This document shows, in pieces, positions 9,738-30,211 of a stretch of 33,549 nt of DNA. The translations under genes were made by a program, and so were the position numbers. Below the pieces are notes generated by a model. The model did no database searches. It worked only from the letters and a program-made list of their open reading frames with translations, and was not told the origin of the DNA. The DNA comes from an uncultured Myxococcales bacterium (GTDB lineage Bacteria; Myxococcota; UBA727; VGSZ01): assembly GCA_903952805.1 (NCBI GenBank), contig CAJBHN010000539.1:1-33549 (forward strand), written 5' to 3'. The number at the start of each line of letters is the position of its first letter. Position 1 is the stretch's first letter.

Positions 9738-9953
9738 CACCGACTCAGCCTTTGTTGGCCAATCGGCCGCCAAAGAGGGTGCCCGACAGCGCCACGAGTC
9801 CCAGCATGCTGATCACACGCATTCGACGACGAGCACCGGGCGCCATGATTCCTCCAGAGACGGCGTCGGCGGTGTCGCCAACGGCTCCACGGGAGCAGCA
9901 GGTGCCGCCGTTGGCCCAGTGGCAGCACCCAACGACAGCGGTGGTCGTCGTCG

Positions 9954-10805
9954 TCACCGCCCTCGCATGAACGCCAGCACCCGCTCGTTGACGGCGGCCG
10001 CATGGGTGATGGGCCCCATGTGGCCGGCGCCGGCGATGGTGTCGATGGTGGCGTGGGGCATGACCGACGCGGCGAGCTGCGCGCTCTCTCTCGCGGCCGT
10101 TGGCGACGTCTCCCCGATCAAGAAATGGGTCCGCAGCGAGAGCCCGCGCAGGGCCTCGATCGAAACCCGGGTCCCCTCCAGCGAGGCGACGTGGCGGTGG
10201 GAAATGCGAACCTGCTCGATCGTGCTGCGGCGCGCCGTCGTCGACAAGCGCGCAAAGGCCCCCGGGCCGTTCCACCAGTCGATGAAGCCTTGCACCCAAC
10301 GAGCCCCCGGGCCGCCGGGGTCGTCGTCGCTGATGGGCACGGCCATCAACGCGGTGATGCGGGCCACCTCGACCTGGGCCTGCTCGCTGCCGGGCGGGTC
10401 GGCCCCCGGGCCGACGAGGTGGACAATGACGGGCTCGTACAGGCACAGGGCGGCAAAGAGGGCCGGCTCCCGCAGTGCCGCCTCCAGCGCGACGAGGCCG
10501 CCGAAGGAGTGGCCAAAGACGCAGGCGGGCGCCGGCAGCGACGACAGCAGCGCCACCAGCGCCCGCACCTCGGTGTCGAGAGTCCAGAGGCTGCCGCCCG
10601 GTCCATCCGCTGGCGGCGTCTGGCCCACGCCGAGGAGGTCGGCGGCCACGACGGTGAAATCGGCCTCGGCCATCGCGGTCAGTCGCGAAAACTGCGTCGA
10701 ACTCATGCCGCTGGAGTGCAGCAGCACCAGCGGCGGGCCCTGACCCGTCACGGTGGCGTGCAGGCGACGCGGCTGGTCGGAGGGCACGGTGGCGAGGTGC
10801 TTCAT
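9954..10805 (-). CDS. Alpha/beta-fold hydrolase
   Basis: PLVLLHSSGMS (oxyanion region), the nucleophile elbow GHSFGG, and the C-terminal AGHMGPITH, which is typical of this fold. Confidence 0.85.
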   Translation of the reverse strand: MKHLATVPSDQPRRLHATVTGQGPPLVLLHSSGMSSTQFSRLTAMAEADFTVVAADLLGVGQTPPADGPGGSLWTLDTEVRALVALLSSLPAPACVFGHSFGGLVALEAALREPALFAALCLYEPVIVHLVGPGADPPGSEQAQVEVARITALMAVPISDDDPGGPGARWVQGFIDWWNGPGAFARLSTTARRSTIEQVRISHRHVASLEGTRVSIEALRGLSLRTHFLIGETSPTAARESAQLAASVMPHATIDTIAGAGHMGPITHAAAVNERVLAFMRGR

Positions 10806-11103
10806 GCCAGCACGGTAATCCCGGCTCCTTGATGGCAGTAGGGGGTCCCGCCGGGTGATCCGTTGATCGCGGCGTCGCCTCGCCGGTGCATCGCCGGTGC
10901 ATCCAACCGACCACCCTCGGTCTTTGACGACGACAACCGCCGTCCGCGATCACCCCGCACCTCAGAGCCTGATGCGGCGTCGACGACGACGGCGGCCGCG
11001 ATCCCGACGTTGACGGCGACCAACGCCGCCACGGTCGAGGCCCGCCGAGTTCACGTCCATGCTCGCGCGGTCCGTACGCAAACGGCTGTGCTAGGACCTT
11101 GCT

Positions 11104-12303
11104 ATGGCCACCAAGAAGAAGTCGACCACGGCTGCGACCACGAAACCGTCCAAGGCTGCCGACCCGACGGCGCCACCACGCAAGAGGAGGGCCAAAGACC
11201 CCCTCGACGAGGTGACCCTCGCGGCCATCAAACAGACCGCCGCCGGCATCCACGACGCCATCTTGCAGCATAAACGTCCCGAGCTGCGCACCCCCGTGCG
11301 GGCCCTGAGCAACGTCAGCTACGACCCCAAGAAGGGCTACCTGGAAATCGGCAGCGACAAGAAGGTCCGCACGCTGAGCGTGTCGTCGGTCAAGACCTTC
11401 GCCCAGACCCTCAAGATGATGGCCCTGTCCCAGGAGCTCATCAAAAACGACGACGTCGCCACCAAGCGAGACGCCTACTACCAGTCCAAGAACTGGGGCG
11501 ACGCCCGCTTCGATGAACAGCCCGAGAGCGACACCGTCATGGACGATATCGAGGCCCTGTTTTCGGACCTCGGCGTGTCTCGCGAGCAGCTGCGCTTTGT
11601 CCCCGATCAACACGGTGGCGCCGTCGCCGGCGAACTCGTCGTCATCGACCGCGACATCGAAACCGGCGAGCTGATCGAGATCGACTGCACCCGCTTTGGC
11701 TCGGGCGCCTATGCGGTGCCGTCGTGGGTTGAACACCTGAAATTCAAGACCAAAGCCAAGTTCATCTTGTGCATTGAAACCCAGGGTATGTTTCAGCGCC
11801 TGCAGCATCAGAAATACTGGCAAAAGGCCGGCTGCGTATTGGTGTCGATGGGCGGCGTGCCGACGCGCTCCTGCCGGCGTTTTGTGCGGCTCTTGAGTGA
11901 GCAATGCAAGCTGCCCGTCTACGCCTTCACCGACTGCGACCCCTATGGCTTTGCCAACATCTACCGGACACTGAAAGTCGGCTCAGGCAACGCCGCCCAC
12001 ATCAACCAATTCTTCTGTGTGCCCAACGTGCGCTACCTCGGCCTCACGCCGCAGGACATCATCGACTTCGACCTCGGCAAGGCGACGCATCCGTTGGCCG
12101 ACGTCGACGTCAAACGGGCCTTTGACGCGTTGAAGAACGATCCGTTTTTCCAAAACCAGAAGCCGTGGAAGCAGGCCATCGACCTGTTGATGAAGATGCA
12201 AAAGCGCGCCGAGCAACAGGCCCTGTCGCTGCACGGCTTGAACTTCGTCATCGACGACTACCTGCCCAGAAAACTGAAGAACCCCGACGCGTTCCTGCCG
12301 TGA
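11104..12303 (+). CDS. top6A: DNA topoisomerase VI subunit A / Spo11-family protein (5Y-CAP + Toprim) with a basic N-terminal tail
   Basis: TKRDAYYQS carries the catalytic Tyr motif. The Toprim Glu lies in FILCIETQGMF and the DxD in FTDCDPYGF. The C-terminus has KRAEQQALSLHGLNFV. The N-terminal tail MATKKKSTTAATTKPSKAADPTAPPRKRRAK is Lys/Ala/Pro-rich. Confidence 0.9.
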   Translation: MATKKKSTTAATTKPSKAADPTAPPRKRRAKDPLDEVTLAAIKQTAAGIHDAILQHKRPELRTPVRALSNVSYDPKKGYLEIGSDKKVRTLSVSSVKTFAQTLKMMALSQELIKNDDVATKRDAYYQSKNWGDARFDEQPESDTVMDDIEALFSDLGVSREQLRFVPDQHGGAVAGELVVIDRDIETGELIEIDCTRFGSGAYAVPSWVEHLKFKTKAKFILCIETQGMFQRLQHQKYWQKAGCVLVSMGGVPTRSCRRFVRLLSEQCKLPVYAFTDCDPYGFANIYRTLKVGSGNAAHINQFFCVPNVRYLGLTPQDIIDFDLGKATHPLADVDVKRAFDALKNDPFFQNQKPWKQAIDLLMKMQKRAEQQALSLHGLNFVIDDYLPRKLKNPDAFLP

Positions 12304-13508
12304 GCACCGCCGACGTGCACACCGTCAACGACGCTGCGCGGCGTCGTCAGTTGCCATCGCTGACCGGGGCCCGCTTCGTCGCGGCCCTGGCCGTCGTCGT
12401 CTACCACCTGTGGCGCTGGGATGCGTGGGCCGTGCCTGGCGTCGTCGAACACGTCGTGGGCGGCTTGAGCGTCGCGGTGTCGTTCTTCTTCGTGTTGTCG
12501 GGCTTCGTCCTCGCCTGGTCGGGCTTGCGCGACGACGGCTCATTGCGGCTGCCGGCGACGGCGTTTTGGCGGGGGCGGCTGCGACGCCTGGCGCCGACGT
12601 TTTGGCTGGCCACCGTCGTGGCCCTGCCGACGGCGCTGGCGCTGCTGCACCGCAGTGGCCTTGAGGGGACCGGGTTGGTGCGAGCGGTGGTGCTCGACGC
12701 GGCGCTGTCGTTGTCGTTCTTGCAGGCGTTCGTGCCCGGCCATGAGCTGGCCATCAATCCGCCGGCGTGGTCGTTGTCGGCGGAGATGTTTTTTTCGCTG
12801 CTGTTTCCGCTGCTGGCACCACCGCTGTTTCGCCTGCGGGCCGGCTCGGCCGTCGTCGCCCTGGTGGGCTTGTGGCTGCTGTCGTGGTTGCCGGGCCTGC
12901 TCTACCTCGTGCTCGACCCCGATGGCCTGTCGACCGCAGGCATCGCCGTCGACCACCGCGCCCACGCCGTCGTCCTCGACGTGCTGCGCTATCACCCTTT
13001 GCTGCGGCTGCCGGAATTTCTCGCCGGCATCGTCGCCGCCCGGCTGTTTCTCGACGGACGCCGTGTGCCGACGTCGTCGGCCGTCGTCGCCGTCGTCGTC
13101 GTCATCGCGGTGTTGGCGCTCGGCCTGCCTGCCCCCCTCGTGCACAATGGGCTGCTGGTGCCGGCATTCATTGTGCTGGTGCTGGCGCTGGCGTCGATGT
13201 CGCCGACGATGTCGCCGACGATGGCCCTGTCGACGTCCTCACGGTGGTGGCAGCGCCTCGGCGACAGCAGCTATGCGCTGTACCTGCTGCATGTGCCGCT
13301 GCTGTATTGGATCGCGGGGATGTCCATGCGTCGCCTGGGCCGCAACGTGCTGGATGAGCCGCTGCTCGCTGCGCTCGTTGTCGTCGCCATCGTCGTGGTG
13401 GCCGTCTCTGTGTCGCTGGTGCCGGTATTTGGTGGGCGACGGGTGGGCATATGCAATGTTGGGCTCGGCTCGGACTCCCACCCTAAAACGGGTGGAGGTT
13501 CAACTTGA
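12300..13508 (+). CDS. Acyltransferase family 3 (OafA/YrhL-like) integral membrane protein
   Basis: LPSLTGARFVAALAVVVYH and VSFFFVLSGFVLAW are typical AT3 motifs, and the protein has many TM helices. The GTG at 12300 overlaps the top6A stop (GTGA). Confidence 0.8.
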   Translation: MSTADVHTVNDAARRRQLPSLTGARFVAALAVVVYHLWRWDAWAVPGVVEHVVGGLSVAVSFFFVLSGFVLAWSGLRDDGSLRLPATAFWRGRLRRLAPTFWLATVVALPTALALLHRSGLEGTGLVRAVVLDAALSLSFLQAFVPGHELAINPPAWSLSAEMFFSLLFPLLAPPLFRLRAGSAVVALVGLWLLSWLPGLLYLVLDPDGLSTAGIAVDHRAHAVVLDVLRYHPLLRLPEFLAGIVAARLFLDGRRVPTSSAVVAVVVVIAVLALGLPAPLVHNGLLVPAFIVLVLALASMSPTMSPTMALSTSSRWWQRLGDSSYALYLLHVPLLYWIAGMSMRRLGRNVLDEPLLAALVVVAIVVVAVSVSLVPVFGGRRVGICNVGLGSDSHPKTGGGST

Positions 13509-14102: not shown

Positions 14103-14114
14103 GACGTTCCAAGC

Positions 14115-14138
14115 CTACACAACACAGTGTGTAGACTT
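14115..14138. promoter_or_regulatory. Palindromic candidate operator upstream of vapB
   Basis: CTACACA-acacag-TGTGTAG (7-bp arms) contains the nested palindrome ACACA-g-TGTGT. It lies 13-35 nt upstream of the vapB start codon. Confidence 0.4.
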
Positions 14139-14223
14139 CAACGCTGGATCCGGGAGCCCAACGGGCTGCATCTCGGGCACGAGCACATGATTGTGCGCGA
14201 AGCGCATATCATAGCGGAGTGAT

Positions 14224-14244
14224 TTCATCGCGTAGCGATGAAAC
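14224..14244 (-). other. Perfect 9-bp stem / 3-nt loop hairpin downstream of the S-subunit gene
   Basis: TTTCATCGC-gta-GCGATGAAA lies 33 nt beyond the stop at 14277. No U-tract follows it on the minus strand, so a terminator role is uncertain. Confidence 0.35.
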
Positions 14245-14276
14245 CCTGCCGAGATGCTTTGTTGCCCAGCTCGGGC

Positions 14277-15239
14277 CTATGCCGGCTCTTCATCGTCTCC
14301 ATAATCGTCCTGTTCTCTCGAGCCAAGATCGCTCAATGTAAAGCGATGAGGCAGCGCCGCAATCTTTAATTTTTGCGAAAGACCTTCACGAGCCTTCACA
14401 ATCGAAGTGAAGTAAGTCCGGAACGCCTCAGAAACCTCACGGCCGACATCAACGCTCGGCGGCACTGGAATCAACAGTTCAACGACCCTGTCGCCGACGT
14501 CTTCGCGATTTGTCTGCATTAGAACCAGACGGCGCCACTGCGCCCGAACTGGCTCCAAGGTTAGAGCCCATAGCAAGTAGAACTGGTCGACTAGAAGCGG
14601 TGTTGCCGCACGGAATATGAAGACTTCCTTAGTTAGTACAATTCGCTCTTGACCCGGCATCAAAACACAGAAATCACCGATGTTCTTTGATGTTCGCGCA
14701 GGTGAAATCAAATCGTAAGGCATTAATCCCGAGCCTGCCTCGCCCCAGTACTCCTCAGCGAGCGGCAGCGGTATCATATTTGTAGGATTTATATTCACCC
14801 CGCCGGCGCGGAGATCCGAGACCTTAATGTAAGGGACATCGCCGACGCGTCGATCGGCCGAGGGGCTGCCATGGCCGGGAAACCGTTGGAGGTCCCCTGC
14901 AAGCTCCAGTTCACCAACTGTTTTAAGGGAGTATCCGGGCAATTTAGAATTTGTAAAAGACCGGAGATTTTCGACGGTGCTTAAGTCGAAAAAAGTAGGT
15001 GTCGCAATTCGGCTCGTTGAAACATCCGACGCCTTCACGGTAAATGACGTCCCAGTGCCAACGGTGCCGGCCAGAATTGCATCAACGTCCGTCTCCAGAC
15101 GATCGTCGAGAAGCGCGAGACGATCCCCTGTTGCCTGGTCAACTTGGTAAAGCTCTGCACCGTCCTTGTTAATGCCACAGGTGGGCGCGTTCGACATGAT
15201 CACCTGCCCGTCCGTGAACCACTTAGGTCGGTGCGGCAT
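14277..15239 (-). CDS. Restriction-modification specificity (HsdS-like) subunit with a single target-recognition domain
   Basis: GDVPYIKVSDLRAGGVNINPTNMIPLP resembles the start of an HsdS TRD. LLIPVPPSVDVGREVSEAFRTYFTSIVKAREGL resembles the conserved i.lPPl.eQ..I helix region. It overlaps the methylase gene by 17 nt. Confidence 0.7.
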   Translation of the reverse strand: MPHRPKWFTDGQVIMSNAPTCGINKDGAELYQVDQATGDRLALLDDRLETDVDAILAGTVGTGTSFTVKASDVSTSRIATPTFFDLSTVENLRSFTNSKLPGYSLKTVGELELAGDLQRFPGHGSPSADRRVGDVPYIKVSDLRAGGVNINPTNMIPLPLAEEYWGEAGSGLMPYDLISPARTSKNIGDFCVLMPGQERIVLTKEVFIFRAATPLLVDQFYLLWALTLEPVRAQWRRLVLMQTNREDVGDRVVELLIPVPPSVDVGREVSEAFRTYFTSIVKAREGLSQKLKIAALPHRFTLSDLGSREQDDYGDDEEPA

Positions 15240-16851
15240 TTAGGCCTACCTTTTCGAATATATAGATGTTTGTCTTTGCCCGACAGAAGCCTTGAAACGC
15301 CTCCATCGGGACGTTGAGAACGCCCCGAAGCGTCAGTTTGCCCTGTAGCCAATCAAAGAGCCACAGATAGCTTGAGCTGAAGAAATACGTTTCTGGGAGC
15401 ACAATTGCAACGCGGCCACCTGCCACGAGAAGCCTCCAAGACAATTCAAGAAATGCGAGCCCGATTTCGCGCTCCTGGAATGTCTTTGCATCAAATGTGA
15501 ATGATCCATCGGGCATTCGTATCGGCTTTTGGCAAATCGTTAGCGAAGCCAATCGTGCGTCGTTTCTTGAAACCTTCAGCTTCTTCCCAAAAGGAGGGTT
15601 CGTGGCAACACAGGTGAAGCTTTCCGGCTTGAGCACAGGTACAAGGTGTGGCCAAGATTCCGGCCACTTTTGCCTAGCAATAGAATCCCCAATAAACGTG
15701 TGTGCACTTCCATCACCAAGAATCATCATCATCGCCTTGGCCAACTTCACACCCACTGCGCTTTTGTCTACGCCATAGATGTGCTGTTGGGCCCACGCCT
15801 TAACATCTGACTCCGACATTCCTGGGTGTTTTTCGCGAAATACGCGGAACGCTTGCAAGAGGAAACCACCGGTGCCGCAAGCAGGATCGATTAGCGTGTC
15901 TCCATAGTCCAAATCGAGCGCGCGAATCGCGGCGTGCACTATCCTTGGTGGAGTGAAATACTGGCCGTCTTCTGCTTTTCTAGATGGGCTCCTAAAGACC
16001 TGAAATGCTGAAGAAACCACCTCAAATCCGGCATCGATAAGCTTCACGGCAGCAAGTTCAAAGCATACTTCGTGAATCGTTTCGTCAGCAAATAAAATAT
16101 CTCGATCGTTTTCTTGGGAAAAGACGTCTTTAGCCGAGAGTTTTAGGCTTTGATAGAAGTCTCTAATCGACTTTGCTGTCGCTTTTGCAGTCGCCTGGGT
16201 TTGAAATAAAACCGTCTCTGAGGGCTTTGCCTTGGCGCGGCGATCACTTTCCAATTTAACAAGGATCAGGTTGCAAAGTTGATTGAGCCGGGTTTCAGGC
16301 TCTGTCACGCGGGCATCTTGGGCTACGACAATCTCGAGCAGTCGCTGTAATCGCTTTGCGAGGTCGCGCGTGTTTGTCGCCTGAAGGTGGCGCCATAAAA
16401 GCGGCTCTCGCGTGGTATGTAAGAGAAGGTCGTTTGGCCCGGGGAGGGTCGAAATGTGCTCACGCTGGAACGTGCCGTCCTGCAATCGATATACTGCGGT
16501 TAGTAGAGTGCCATTTGTCCAGTAGCCAGCCCGAACACGAGGCTCGTGACCCATATATACTTCAAGTTGGTCAACACCGACAGTCTCATCGGGCTCTTTG
16601 GTCTCAAAAATTATGCGAATGTGCTCAACTTCCCCACGCTGATCGGGCGAAGCGAACGCGACCAAGTCGACCGGAAAACCGTCGAAGGAGTGCCCCTTCT
16701 CTCGCTTGCTCGCGTCGTGGGGGGTCTTTGGTACCTTCCATTCGGGAGTCCATTGGAGTTGGTCGTCCTTCCACCCCAACTCGATAAGTTTTGCGATGAG
16801 TGGAAGTCGAACGAGTTGGTGTTCTGGGCCGGTCATAGCCATAGACTCCAC
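15223..16851 (-). CDS. Fused PD-(D/E)xK nuclease-like N-terminal domain plus gamma-class N6-adenine DNA methyltransferase (type IIB/IIG-like RM subunit)
   Basis: The N-terminal part FDGFPVDLVAF...RIIFETKEP gives a D...ExK motif in an HSDR_N-like domain. Methylase motif I is LIDPACGTGGFLLQAF and motif IV is VATNPPFGKK. The start is GTG 16851 or ATG 16842/16836. Confidence 0.8.
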   Translation of the reverse strand: MESMAMTGPEHQLVRLPLIAKLIELGWKDDQLQWTPEWKVPKTPHDASKREKGHSFDGFPVDLVAFASPDQRGEVEHIRIIFETKEPDETVGVDQLEVYMGHEPRVRAGYWTNGTLLTAVYRLQDGTFQREHISTLPGPNDLLLHTTREPLLWRHLQATNTRDLAKRLQRLLEIVVAQDARVTEPETRLNQLCNLILVKLESDRRAKAKPSETVLFQTQATAKATAKSIRDFYQSLKLSAKDVFSQENDRDILFADETIHEVCFELAAVKLIDAGFEVVSSAFQVFRSPSRKAEDGQYFTPPRIVHAAIRALDLDYGDTLIDPACGTGGFLLQAFRVFREKHPGMSESDVKAWAQQHIYGVDKSAVGVKLAKAMMMILGDGSAHTFIGDSIARQKWPESWPHLVPVLKPESFTCVATNPPFGKKLKVSRNDARLASLTICQKPIRMPDGSFTFDAKTFQEREIGLAFLELSWRLLVAGGRVAIVLPETYFFSSSYLWLFDWLQGKLTLRGVLNVPMEAFQGFCRAKTNIYIFEKVGLNAAPT

Positions 16852-17130
16852 TAGCAGATGGCTCGCGTTTCCGACAGGGCCTGGTCTTCAAGCTGGGCAA
16901 CGATGTTTTGTCGGACAGCATCCGCATGACCCGCGCATTCCCGCTGGCGCCGTCATGGTCGTGGCCCCCGGCAGCACCGGCACCATCCACCCCACCGGCG
17001 GAGACATCGTCGGCAACGGCGGGTTCGTCACTGATGGCCCGCGCATGAGCTACGGCACCCAATCCGGCAGGGCTGCATCGTCGGCGTCTCCGTTCCCGCA
17101 TGAGTCGTCGACGGCGCGGACGGCCCTGGC

Positions 17131-27353: not shown

Positions 27354-27617
27354 GTGATCTCCGTCAACAGGAGGACGACAACAGGGGGATGGTGGGGAAC
27401 TCGGGCGGATTATCGCACTTAGGCGTACATGTGTTGCTTCCTTTTCGGCCGGGGGAGGCCAGCGTTTCAAGTCCCTGTTTTCATTGGTGATATGCCGAGG
27501 GCTCGTCCCGACGGATCCCCGGGGGCCGTCCCGCCGGCCCCGGCTGCTGCATCCCGTCGTTGCCCACCCCGTCTCGCGCAGGCAACCAACGGCCGGGCGT
27601 CAACACGGGAGCCGGCG

Positions 27618-28714
27618 GTGATCAAATACCTGGGCTCCAAACGCACGCTGCTGCCCCTGATCGGCGGCGTCGTCGCCGCCCTCAAAGACGCCCACACCGC
27701 CATCGACCTGTTCTCCGGCACCAGCCGCGTGGGCCATGCCCTCAAACGCGCCGGCCTGCGCGTCGTCGCCAACGACCTCAACGCCTACGCCGCCACCCTC
27801 GCCCGCTGCTACGTCCAGGCCGACCTCGACGACGTCGCCCATGACGCCCGGCTGTTGATCGCGGAGTTCAACGCGCTGCCCGGCCGCCCCGGCTACGTCA
27901 CTGACACCTTCTGCGAGCAGTCCCGCTTCTTTCAACCCAAAAACGGCGCCCGCATCGACGCCATCCGCGAAGCCATCGTCGACAAAGGCCTGCCCCCCGA
28001 TTTGGAGGCCGTCTGCCTCGTGTCGTTGATGGAGGCCGCCGACCGCGTCGACTCCACCTGCGGCGTGCAAATGGCCTACCTCAAACAATGGTCCAAGCGC
28101 GCCCACCACGACCTGACGCTGCGCCTGCCCGAGCTGCTGCCCCGCCCCGAGCGCGGCCGCTGTCTGGCCCTGCACCATGACGCCATCGACGTCGTCAACG
28201 ACCTCTCGGCCGACGTCATCTATCTGGACCCGCCCTACAACCAGCACAGCTACCTCGGCAACTACCATGTGTGGGAGTCGCTGGTGCTGTGGGACAAGCC
28301 AGCCGTCTACGGCAAGGCCTGCAAGCGCGTCGACAATCTCGAGCGCAAAAGCGCGTTCAACCGCAAGACCACCATCGAAGCCGCCGTCAAAGACATCGTC
28401 CGCCTCGTCGACGCCCGCTTGTTGCTCGTGTCGTTCAGCAACGAGGGCTACATCTCGCGCGCCGCGATGGAGGCGCTGTTGGCCGAGCGTGGTCCCGTCC
28501 ACGTCATCGCCACCGACTATCAACGCTACGTCGGTGCCCGCATCGGCATCCACGGCCCCGGCGGCGACGTCGTGGGCGCCATCAGCCATCTGCGCAACCT
28601 CGAATATCTCTACGTCGTCGACATCGCCGGCAGCGGCGTCGACTGGGCCAGCGTCGCCAGCCAGATTCAGCACCGCGCACCGTCGACGACCAGCACCGGC
28701 TATGCTCGACGCGC

Positions 28715-28718
<4 letters not shown>
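27618..28718 (+). CDS. Dam/D12-class-like N6-adenine DNA methyltransferase
   Basis: The protein starts IKYLGSKRTLLPLI. DLFSGTSRVG is the AdoMet motif and IYLDPPYN is the DPPY catalytic motif. The GTG at 27618 is preceded by GGGAG with a 6-nt spacer. Alternative in-frame starts are ATG 27492 and ATG 27429. Confidence 0.8.

Positions 28719-30211
<1,493 letters not shown>

Follow-up and report, generated by a model that had tools for sequence, protein, structure and literature searches.

A top6A gene apart from top6B in an uncultured Myxococcales bacterium: probable A subunit of an ordinary bacterial topoisomerase VI

What does a gene for the A subunit of DNA topoisomerase VI (Topo VI) encode when no gene for the B subunit lies beside it: one half of an ordinary enzyme, or a DNA-cleaving protein that acts by itself? 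The question is raised by contig CAJBHN010000539.1 of an uncultured Myxococcales bacterium (assembly GCA_903952805.1), the entire 33,549 bp of which were analysed and are called here the window. The window contains a top6A gene that an original prediction had described as coding for a complete Top6A/Spo11-type protein with no Top6B partner, coupled to a membrane acyltransferase gene and situated beside a vapBC/restriction-modification island. Comparison with related loci indicates that the gene very probably encodes the A subunit of an ordinary bacterial Topo VI whose top6B gene has moved elsewhere in the genome.

The Top6A protein of the window

The 399-aa product of top6A contains three Pfam domains of the Top6A family, all well over their curated gathering thresholds, namely TOP6A-Spo11_Toprim (PF21180; 186.5 bits, profile positions 1-170 of 170), TP6A_N (PF04406; 57.2 bits versus a cut-off of 26), which represents the 5Y-CAP/winged-helix part, and Topo_VI_alpha (PF20768; 52.2 bits). 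The best match in the PDB is Top6A of M. jannaschii (1D3Y; 329 bits, E 4e-97), to which residues 93-399 could be aligned, while the alignment with Top6A of M. mazei spans residues 43-393 and pairs residues 43-92 with M. mazei 21-70. A Top6A hidden Markov model (HMM) searched against the six-frame translation gave 793 bits in the top6A frame only, and the best NCBIfam model, NF003337, matched over model positions 18-370 of 370. The family assignment made in the original prediction is thereby confirmed.

The motifs named in that prediction are all in their expected places. KRDAYYQS (residues 121-128) includes R122 and the catalytic Y126 (nt 11479-11481), which align with LREAYY of 1D3Y, corresponding to R99/Y103 of the M. 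jannaschii protein in the numbering of PMC7671362. LCIETQG at residue 222 provides E225, with IETQG aligned to IETSG of 1D3Y, and TDCDPYG at residue 276 provides D277 and D279, aligned to TDGDPYG. The C-terminal KRAEQQAL (residues 367-374) fits the Topo VI-type T2BI box R/KxExxA/S. The open reading frame (ORF) encodes a complete Top6A with intact catalytic residues. It starts with ATG, with AGGA located 7 nt 5' of this codon.

No Top6B was found in the window, either by tblastn with two Top6B proteins (none at E<=1e-5) or by a Top6B HMM searched against the six-frame translation of the 33.5 kb (best E 1.6), and no HATPase_c domain was detected in any scanned window ORF. The statement that the window lacks a Top6B or other GHKL ORF is therefore upheld by similarity, profile and domain scans alike.

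Position of top6B in related bacteria

Relatives of the window protein form a large family of high conservation in metagenome-assembled genomes (MAGs) of Myxococcota and "Deltaproteobacteria", the best 120 clusters being 69-98% identical to it, and identical copies were present in ~10 freshwater metagenome assemblies. Assemblies with identical copies include ERZ27313515, ERZ27313516, ERZ18655639, ERZ1426760, ERZ1426774 and ERR4223705. A Top6B from one relative, used as query, revealed a Top6B family as large as the Top6A family. Gene order was scored by tblastn at 80 loci from species-representative genomes and 80 from metagenomes, among the matches listed, supplemented with loci obtained by exact look-up. 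The genome scan was seeded by two peptides, both of Top6A, and neither it nor the metagenome scan returned the species of the window. Loci were regarded as informative if the sequence upstream of top6A extended over 2.5 kb or more.

In these informative loci top6B is located directly upstream of top6A, on the same strand, in 58 of 72 cases at 55-70% Top6A identity to the window and in 16 of 23 at 70-77%, versus 0 of 9 at 77% or more, the latter representing the subclade of the window. The difference between 74/95 tandem loci outside the subclade and 0/9 within it (Fisher p = 5e-6) indicates that the B-to-A operon is the common bacterial state and that it has been broken in the subclade of the window. 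Upstream of top6A the subclade has a conserved neighbour, a divergent DUF4388/PatA_N gene (in L025, L028, L010 and L012), the place of which is taken in the window by an alpha/beta-hydrolase gene.

Break-up of the operon is not confined to this subclade. In 17 of the 95 informative loci at 55-77% identity Top6B was present nowhere in the sequence covered, and eight of these 17 (L008, L035, L036, L132, L136, L139, L158 and L189) have flanks of at least 8 kb on each side. For L036 the equal size recorded for P0085 and P0186 indicates that Top6B is probably elsewhere on the same 767-kb contig. One tandem of the Myxococcota type, L039 (JABDBI010000006.1), whose Top6A is 72% identical to that of the window, has been deposited as 'Methanobacteriota archaeon', and the contig is likely to be mis-binned or mislabelled.

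In two genomes of the subclade top6B is unlinked but present. GCA_016177705.1 (L010), with a Top6A 82% identical to that of the window, encodes a 665-aa Top6B on the opposite strand, at a distance of 2.9 kb. In GCA_030685175.1 a Top6A 83% identical is encoded on JAUXRK010000111.1 with no Top6B within 10 kb, and a 685-aa Top6B is encoded by a different contig of that MAG, JAUXRK010000030.1. Thus the absence of a Top6B partner, as originally described, holds for the contig but not for the subclade, and the simpler option also offered there, that top6A has merely been separated from its B subunit, is supported by the unlinked genes of these relatives. Moreover, 17 A/B pairs on a shared contig, inferred from the identical size of the longest contig, showed a correlation of r = 0.81 between A-A and B-B identities, as expected of co-inherited partner subunits.

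Stand-alone Top6B loci, with no A gene within the flanks (L014-L024 and L105-L111), lie in housekeeping contexts, where the neighbours are ClpB/DHFR/ThyA, a methyltransferase and an epimerase, or an asparaginase. In the wider clade of the window these neighbourhoods are conserved; after leaving the operon, top6B has settled in stable housekeeping contexts. The order in L111 (10001-13109), L105 and L106 is Top6B, a small ORF and then, on the opposite strand, a 170-aa gene of the asparaginase family, and that in L021-L024 is methyltransferase, epimerase, Top6B and a small ORF. P0169, one of the Top6B proteins of the clade, is canonical, with 396 bits to M. mazei Top6B. Together with P0168 and P0167, P0169 (L023-L024, 10001-12406) represents the Top6B of one Myxococcota clade, in which the proteins are 770-850 aa long and carry an acidic, Ala-rich insertion of ~140 residues between the parts aligning with M. 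mazei Top6B 5-329 and 337-494, as well as a C-terminal Ala/Lys/Pro-rich tail resembling histone H1.

The window protein has a tail of its own at the opposite end. The basic N-terminal extension noted in the original prediction is indeed present, residues 1-36 comprising 10 K/R and 4 D/E; its sequence varies, yet all of the subclade keeps it, and it exceeds that of operon-type relatives by ~20-25 aa. It may be a disordered segment that binds DNA, and the C-terminal tail of Top6B and the K/R-rich tail of Top6A may both add DNA binding.

The ratio of nonsynonymous to synonymous substitution rates (dN/dS) between top6A and its relatives is 0.09-0.20 overall, with values of 0.06-0.12 in residues 96-399, and Top6A of the subclade is under strong purifying selection. 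Conservation of residues 41-95, the segment that binds Top6B, is 0.74 versus 0.90 for Toprim in the split subclade, and 0.63 versus 0.82 in the operon clades; relative to Toprim, the segment is therefore no less conserved than where the operon is intact. Residues 41-95 have a higher dN/dS, but this does not point to loss of B, as it is equally seen against genomes that have B.

The genes around top6A

The features of the locus are listed in Table 1.

Table 1. Features of the top6A locus in the window
Feature	Position	Strand	Remarks
alpha/beta-hydrolase gene	9954-10805	-	divergent from top6A
Intergenic region, 298 bp	10806..11103		between the divergent alpha/beta-hydrolase gene and top6A
top6A, DNA topoisomerase VI subunit A, 399 aa + stop	11104..12303	+	Pfam, PDB and HMM matches
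N-terminal K/R/P/A/T-rich tail, residues 1-36	11104..11211	+	outside the region aligning with solved archaeal Top6A
Top6B-contacting N-terminal 5Y-CAP segment, residues 41-95	11224..11388	+	aligns with M. mazei Top6A 21-70; role from PMC7671362
R122-D-A-Y-Y126, conserved Arg and catalytic Tyr of 5Y-CAP	11467..11481	+	aligned to M. jannaschii LREAYY
Toprim metal-binding E225 (11776-11778) and D277-x-D279 (11932-11940)	11776..11940	+	aligned to 1D3Y
T2BI box KRAEQQAL (R368-x-E370-x-x-A373)	12202..12225	+	Topo VI-type form; the box discriminates subfamilies
Acyl_transf_3 membrane acyltransferase	12300..13508	+	PF01757, 110.9 bits; start GTG 12300 or 12315
320-aa ORF, weak likeness to Type I specificity subunit	14277-15239	-	beside the methyltransferase
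Type I-like N6-adenine methyltransferase	15223-16851	-	in the low-GC island

The upstream gap has the predicted length of 298 bp. It presumably contains a promoter of top6A itself, the gene no longer trailing top6B; no sigma-70-like site was found in this region. A conspecific contig, L001, is 99.1% identical to the window from position 9762 rightwards and carries wholly different genes to the left of it, with SpoIIM-like and CBM_4_9-like genes where the window has Ser/Thr kinase and pilin-like genes. The breakpoint at 9762, beside top6A, is a case of strain-level structural variation.

Downstream, the TGA of top6A (12301-12303) overlaps a possible GTG start of the acyltransferase gene at 12300 in the sequence GTGA (4-nt overlap), while the GTG at 12315, 15 nt further on and an equally possible start, leaves a gap of 11 nt, and gene callers were split between assemblies over a protein of 402 versus 397 aa. 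Of the proposed translational coupling, the Acyl_transf_3 neighbour and the GTGA are thus real, but the start that would create the overlap is ambiguous. The two genes are probably co-transcribed; nothing indicates a shared function.

An orthologous pair occurs in one close relative, L112, where Top6A is 87-90% identical, the acyltransferase is 49% identical over 375 aa, the gap is 10 nt and the start is ATG. None of ~180 other loci of relatives has this pairing, so that it is not conserved among related Myxococcota in the way that the original prediction had suggested for examination. The gene downstream of top6A encodes instead a metallo-beta-lactamase in L026, a sensor histidine kinase in L115, ferritin in L012 and guanylate cyclase in L010 and L028. 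Since the downstream genes differ and the pair is found only in L112, the pairing is interpreted as a recent, lineage-specific juxtaposition. Two candidate partners were rejected. The Acyl_transf_3 protein of L027 is an Acyl_transf_3-SGNH fusion encoded convergently on the opposite strand, a paralogue only 29% identical. The HATPase_c protein encoded directly 3' of top6A in L115, considered as a divergent B-like partner, is an ordinary sensor histidine kinase.

Further downstream, PIN/VapB genes and an N6-methyltransferase gene were confirmed beside the top6A locus. They belong to an island at 14103-17000 with a GC content of 0.533 versus 0.649 for the window, and third-position GC (GC3) is 0.54-0.55 in the island genes versus a host-like 0.85 in top6A. 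The vapBC/restriction-modification island of the original prediction therefore exists as regards the PIN/VapB and methyltransferase genes, but no restriction endonuclease gene was identified at 14103-17000. Three conspecific contigs, L002, L004 and L005, break off within the specificity-like gene, at ~14,972-14,981, a sign that strains may differ there.

Apart from the acyltransferase of L112 and a weak short-chain dehydrogenase/reductase (SDR) match in L037, none of the other window genes was found beside top6A in non-conspecific relatives. No relatives of Top6A were found in a viral contig collection; no phage or tRNA genes were seen in the window, and window scans showed no plasmid genes. 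The only match of Top6A to a defence model was JetD, at 19 bits over residues 193-292, reflecting the shared Toprim fold only; other JetD/OLD domains were absent from the protein, and no JetABC or GajB-like neighbours of top6A were found in the window. Elsewhere in the window, an ORF at 27423-28718 (+) encodes a D12-class N6-adenine DNA methyltransferase (120.5 bits) and is overlapped in another frame by a long ORF with zinc-ribbon matches at 28181-30211 (+); at most one of the two is fully real across the overlap.

Interpretation and relation to known systems

In the arrangement proposed here, two Top6A and two Top6B would form an A2B2 heterotetramer, in which the two Top6A protomers would cleave one DNA duplex by means of Tyr126 and the Mg-binding Toprim residues E225, D277 and D279, and the two Top6B GHKL ATPases would take hold of a second duplex and pass it through the cut, resulting in relaxation and decatenation. 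The ancestral top6B-top6A operon has been broken in this Myxococcota subclade, with top6B now located elsewhere on the chromosome; top6A therefore stands alone on the 33.5-kb contig, preceded by an upstream region of its own, and in the lineage of the window it has come to sit immediately 5' of an acyltransferase gene to which it is unrelated. By analogy with the relatives, possession of a Top6B by the window organism can be expected with great confidence, and Topo VI may act as its decatenase. The situation that the original prediction had linked to an ordinary split Topo VI, with top6B elsewhere and no acyltransferase at orthologous loci, is realised in the relatives, although the top6B of the window organism itself was not found.

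This last point weighs against the proposed arrangement, and several others do so as well. Eight Top6B proteins (P0139, P0241, P0168, P0167, P0169, P0153, P0146 and P0150) were traced to their samples, and none came from those of the window (ERZ27313514/15/16/18, ERZ18655639/271, ERZ1426760/774/741 and ERR4223705). Top6A proteins conspecific or near-conspecific with that of the window are encoded on contigs of up to 246 kb, the near-identical P0256 and P0251 on contigs of 246,596 and 74,892 bp, and among the best 120 Top6B matches none has a longest contig matching that 246 kb. The species is absent from the genome-scan results, being missing or masked in the collection. Furthermore, the 417 bits obtained with NF003337 are below its equivalog cut-off of 675, and all six NCBIfam Topo VI-A models fell short of their equivalog cut-offs. 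No member of a Top6B cluster had the source profile of the window's Top6A, namely roughly 10 contigs from NCBI, JGI, Logan and ENA. Ranking of Top6B clusters by a calibration of A-B divergence proved too coarse, the true partners of control pairs being ranked from 1st to 35th. In favour of the arrangement, the principal clades still lacking an assigned partner are that of the window's Top6A, with 14 clusters, and a large one of Top6B, with 12; the match between them is circumstantial.

The absence of a Top6B tied to the samples of the window would be explained if the species had lost top6B and retained Top6A for a B-independent, Spo11-like role in DNA cleavage or binding, or for work with an unrecognised partner. 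The break-up of the operon across the subclade is a precondition for such independent loss, and in number of member sequences the A clade exceeds every candidate B clade. An unlinked B is nevertheless retained in two genomes of this subclade, the 5Y-CAP segment that binds B is kept and is conserved at least as well as in operon clades, and purifying selection is strong, while the failure to find B reflects an incomplete genome search. It is also known that DNA cleavage by Top6A of archaeal Topo VI needs Top6B and nucleotide. An orphan Top6A is consequently improbable. In its most specific form, operon break-up followed by loss of top6B would have left an intact Top6A as a B-less Spo11-like cleaving protein, maybe joined by another partner, in the genome of a cell and not of a virus; we give this sequence of events very little credence. 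If B has truly been lost, the protein would be one of the rare cases of a cellular Top6A without B, with a bearing on the way in which enzymes of the Spo11 type function when no canonical ATPase is at hand.

The two remaining explanations derive from the neighbours of the gene. Because top6A adjoins the low-GC island with its vapBC, Type I-like methyltransferase and specificity genes and gives marginal 19-bit matches to JetD models, it could be regarded as part of that island and as a defence or mobile nuclease like JetD, OLD/Gabija or the viral Mini-A. Its GC3, however, is that of the host and not of the island genes, no such island accompanies the orthologues in ~180 other loci, no relative was found in the viral contig collection, the features of Mini-A are lacking and the JetD match covers the Toprim fold only, all of which makes this origin extremely unlikely. 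It is just as hard to believe that the gene forms a functional module with the acyltransferase gene, translationally coupled because the products act together. Both genes run in one direction, overlapping by 4 nt or separated by 11 nt, and the orthologous pair in L112 has a 10-nt gap, but in other relatives, whose Top6A is 81-89% identical, different genes follow top6A, the overlapping start lacks conservation and is uncertain even in the window, and L027, the only other locus with an Acyl_transf_3 neighbour, has the distant paralogue on the opposite strand. We know of no biochemical link that would connect a polytopic membrane acyltransferase with a DNA topoisomerase.

An ordinary Topo VI with a displaced top6B accordingly remains the favoured reading. 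Bacterial Topo VI has already been documented, and the window adds another member, from an uncultured freshwater lineage of Myxococcota. What is mildly new is that top6A and top6B are dispersed, and both kept, in at least one Myxococcota subclade. Some 100 informative bacterial loci point to the top6B-top6A tandem as the ancestral arrangement. As the tandem can be dispersed while both genes are kept, a lone top6A on a MAG contig should not be taken for an orphan nuclease of the Spo11 or Mini-A type unless the whole genome has been searched for top6B.

Among known systems, the viral Mini-A proteins are stand-alone and Top6A-like. They are characterised by a length of ~300 aa, the lack of the N-terminal part of 5Y-CAP, an xWELDAL box and occurrence in viruses or proviruses (PMC7671362). 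The window protein likewise combines 5Y-CAP and Toprim and has no adjoining B-subunit gene, but it is 399 aa long, keeps the N-terminal part of 5Y-CAP, has KRAEQQAL as its box and shows neither viral relatives nor a viral context. Topo VIII is defined by B-like and A-like modules, fused or paired, an RVELNAM box and location on plasmids (PMC7671362), none of which applies, since neither the protein nor the window contains a GHKL module, the box is KRAEQQAL and no plasmid genes were seen. JetD and the Toprim nucleases of the OLD family share the Toprim fold with the window protein, which is without the partner genes JetABC or GajB and whose orthologous loci have no conserved defence context. 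The suggestion of a stand-alone, Mini-A-like or defence Toprim nuclease is thus contradicted by the full length of the protein, its B-binding part, the Topo VI-type box, the lack of viral relatives and a JetD score of 19 bits.

The closest resemblance is to archaeal Top6A proteins of solved structure, those of M. jannaschii (1D3Y), M. mazei (2Q2E) and S. shibatae (2ZBK). They have the same three-domain architecture as the window protein and belong to the same length class, and they share with it the catalytic Arg/Tyr, the Toprim E and DxD, the T2BI box and the B-binding N-terminal segment, whereas the K/R-rich N-terminal tail, ~20-25 aa longer, sets the window protein apart. In archaea top6B and top6A are described as invariably arranged in tandem (PMC7671362), unlike in the subclade of the window. 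In bacteria Topo VI is sporadic, having been acquired in at least two transfers from archaea, and a role as the source of decatenase activity in bacteria lacking topo IV has been proposed for it (PMC11302465). The main text of that study, by Allen and Maxwell (2024), gives 0 occurrences for Myxococcota, the phylum of the window; it does not contain the word 'operon', and 'adjacent', which occurs seven times, concerns places in trees or structures and never gene order. One of its two bacterial clusters is placed next to Methanococcales, with which the best PDB match of the window protein, Top6A of M. jannaschii, is in agreement.

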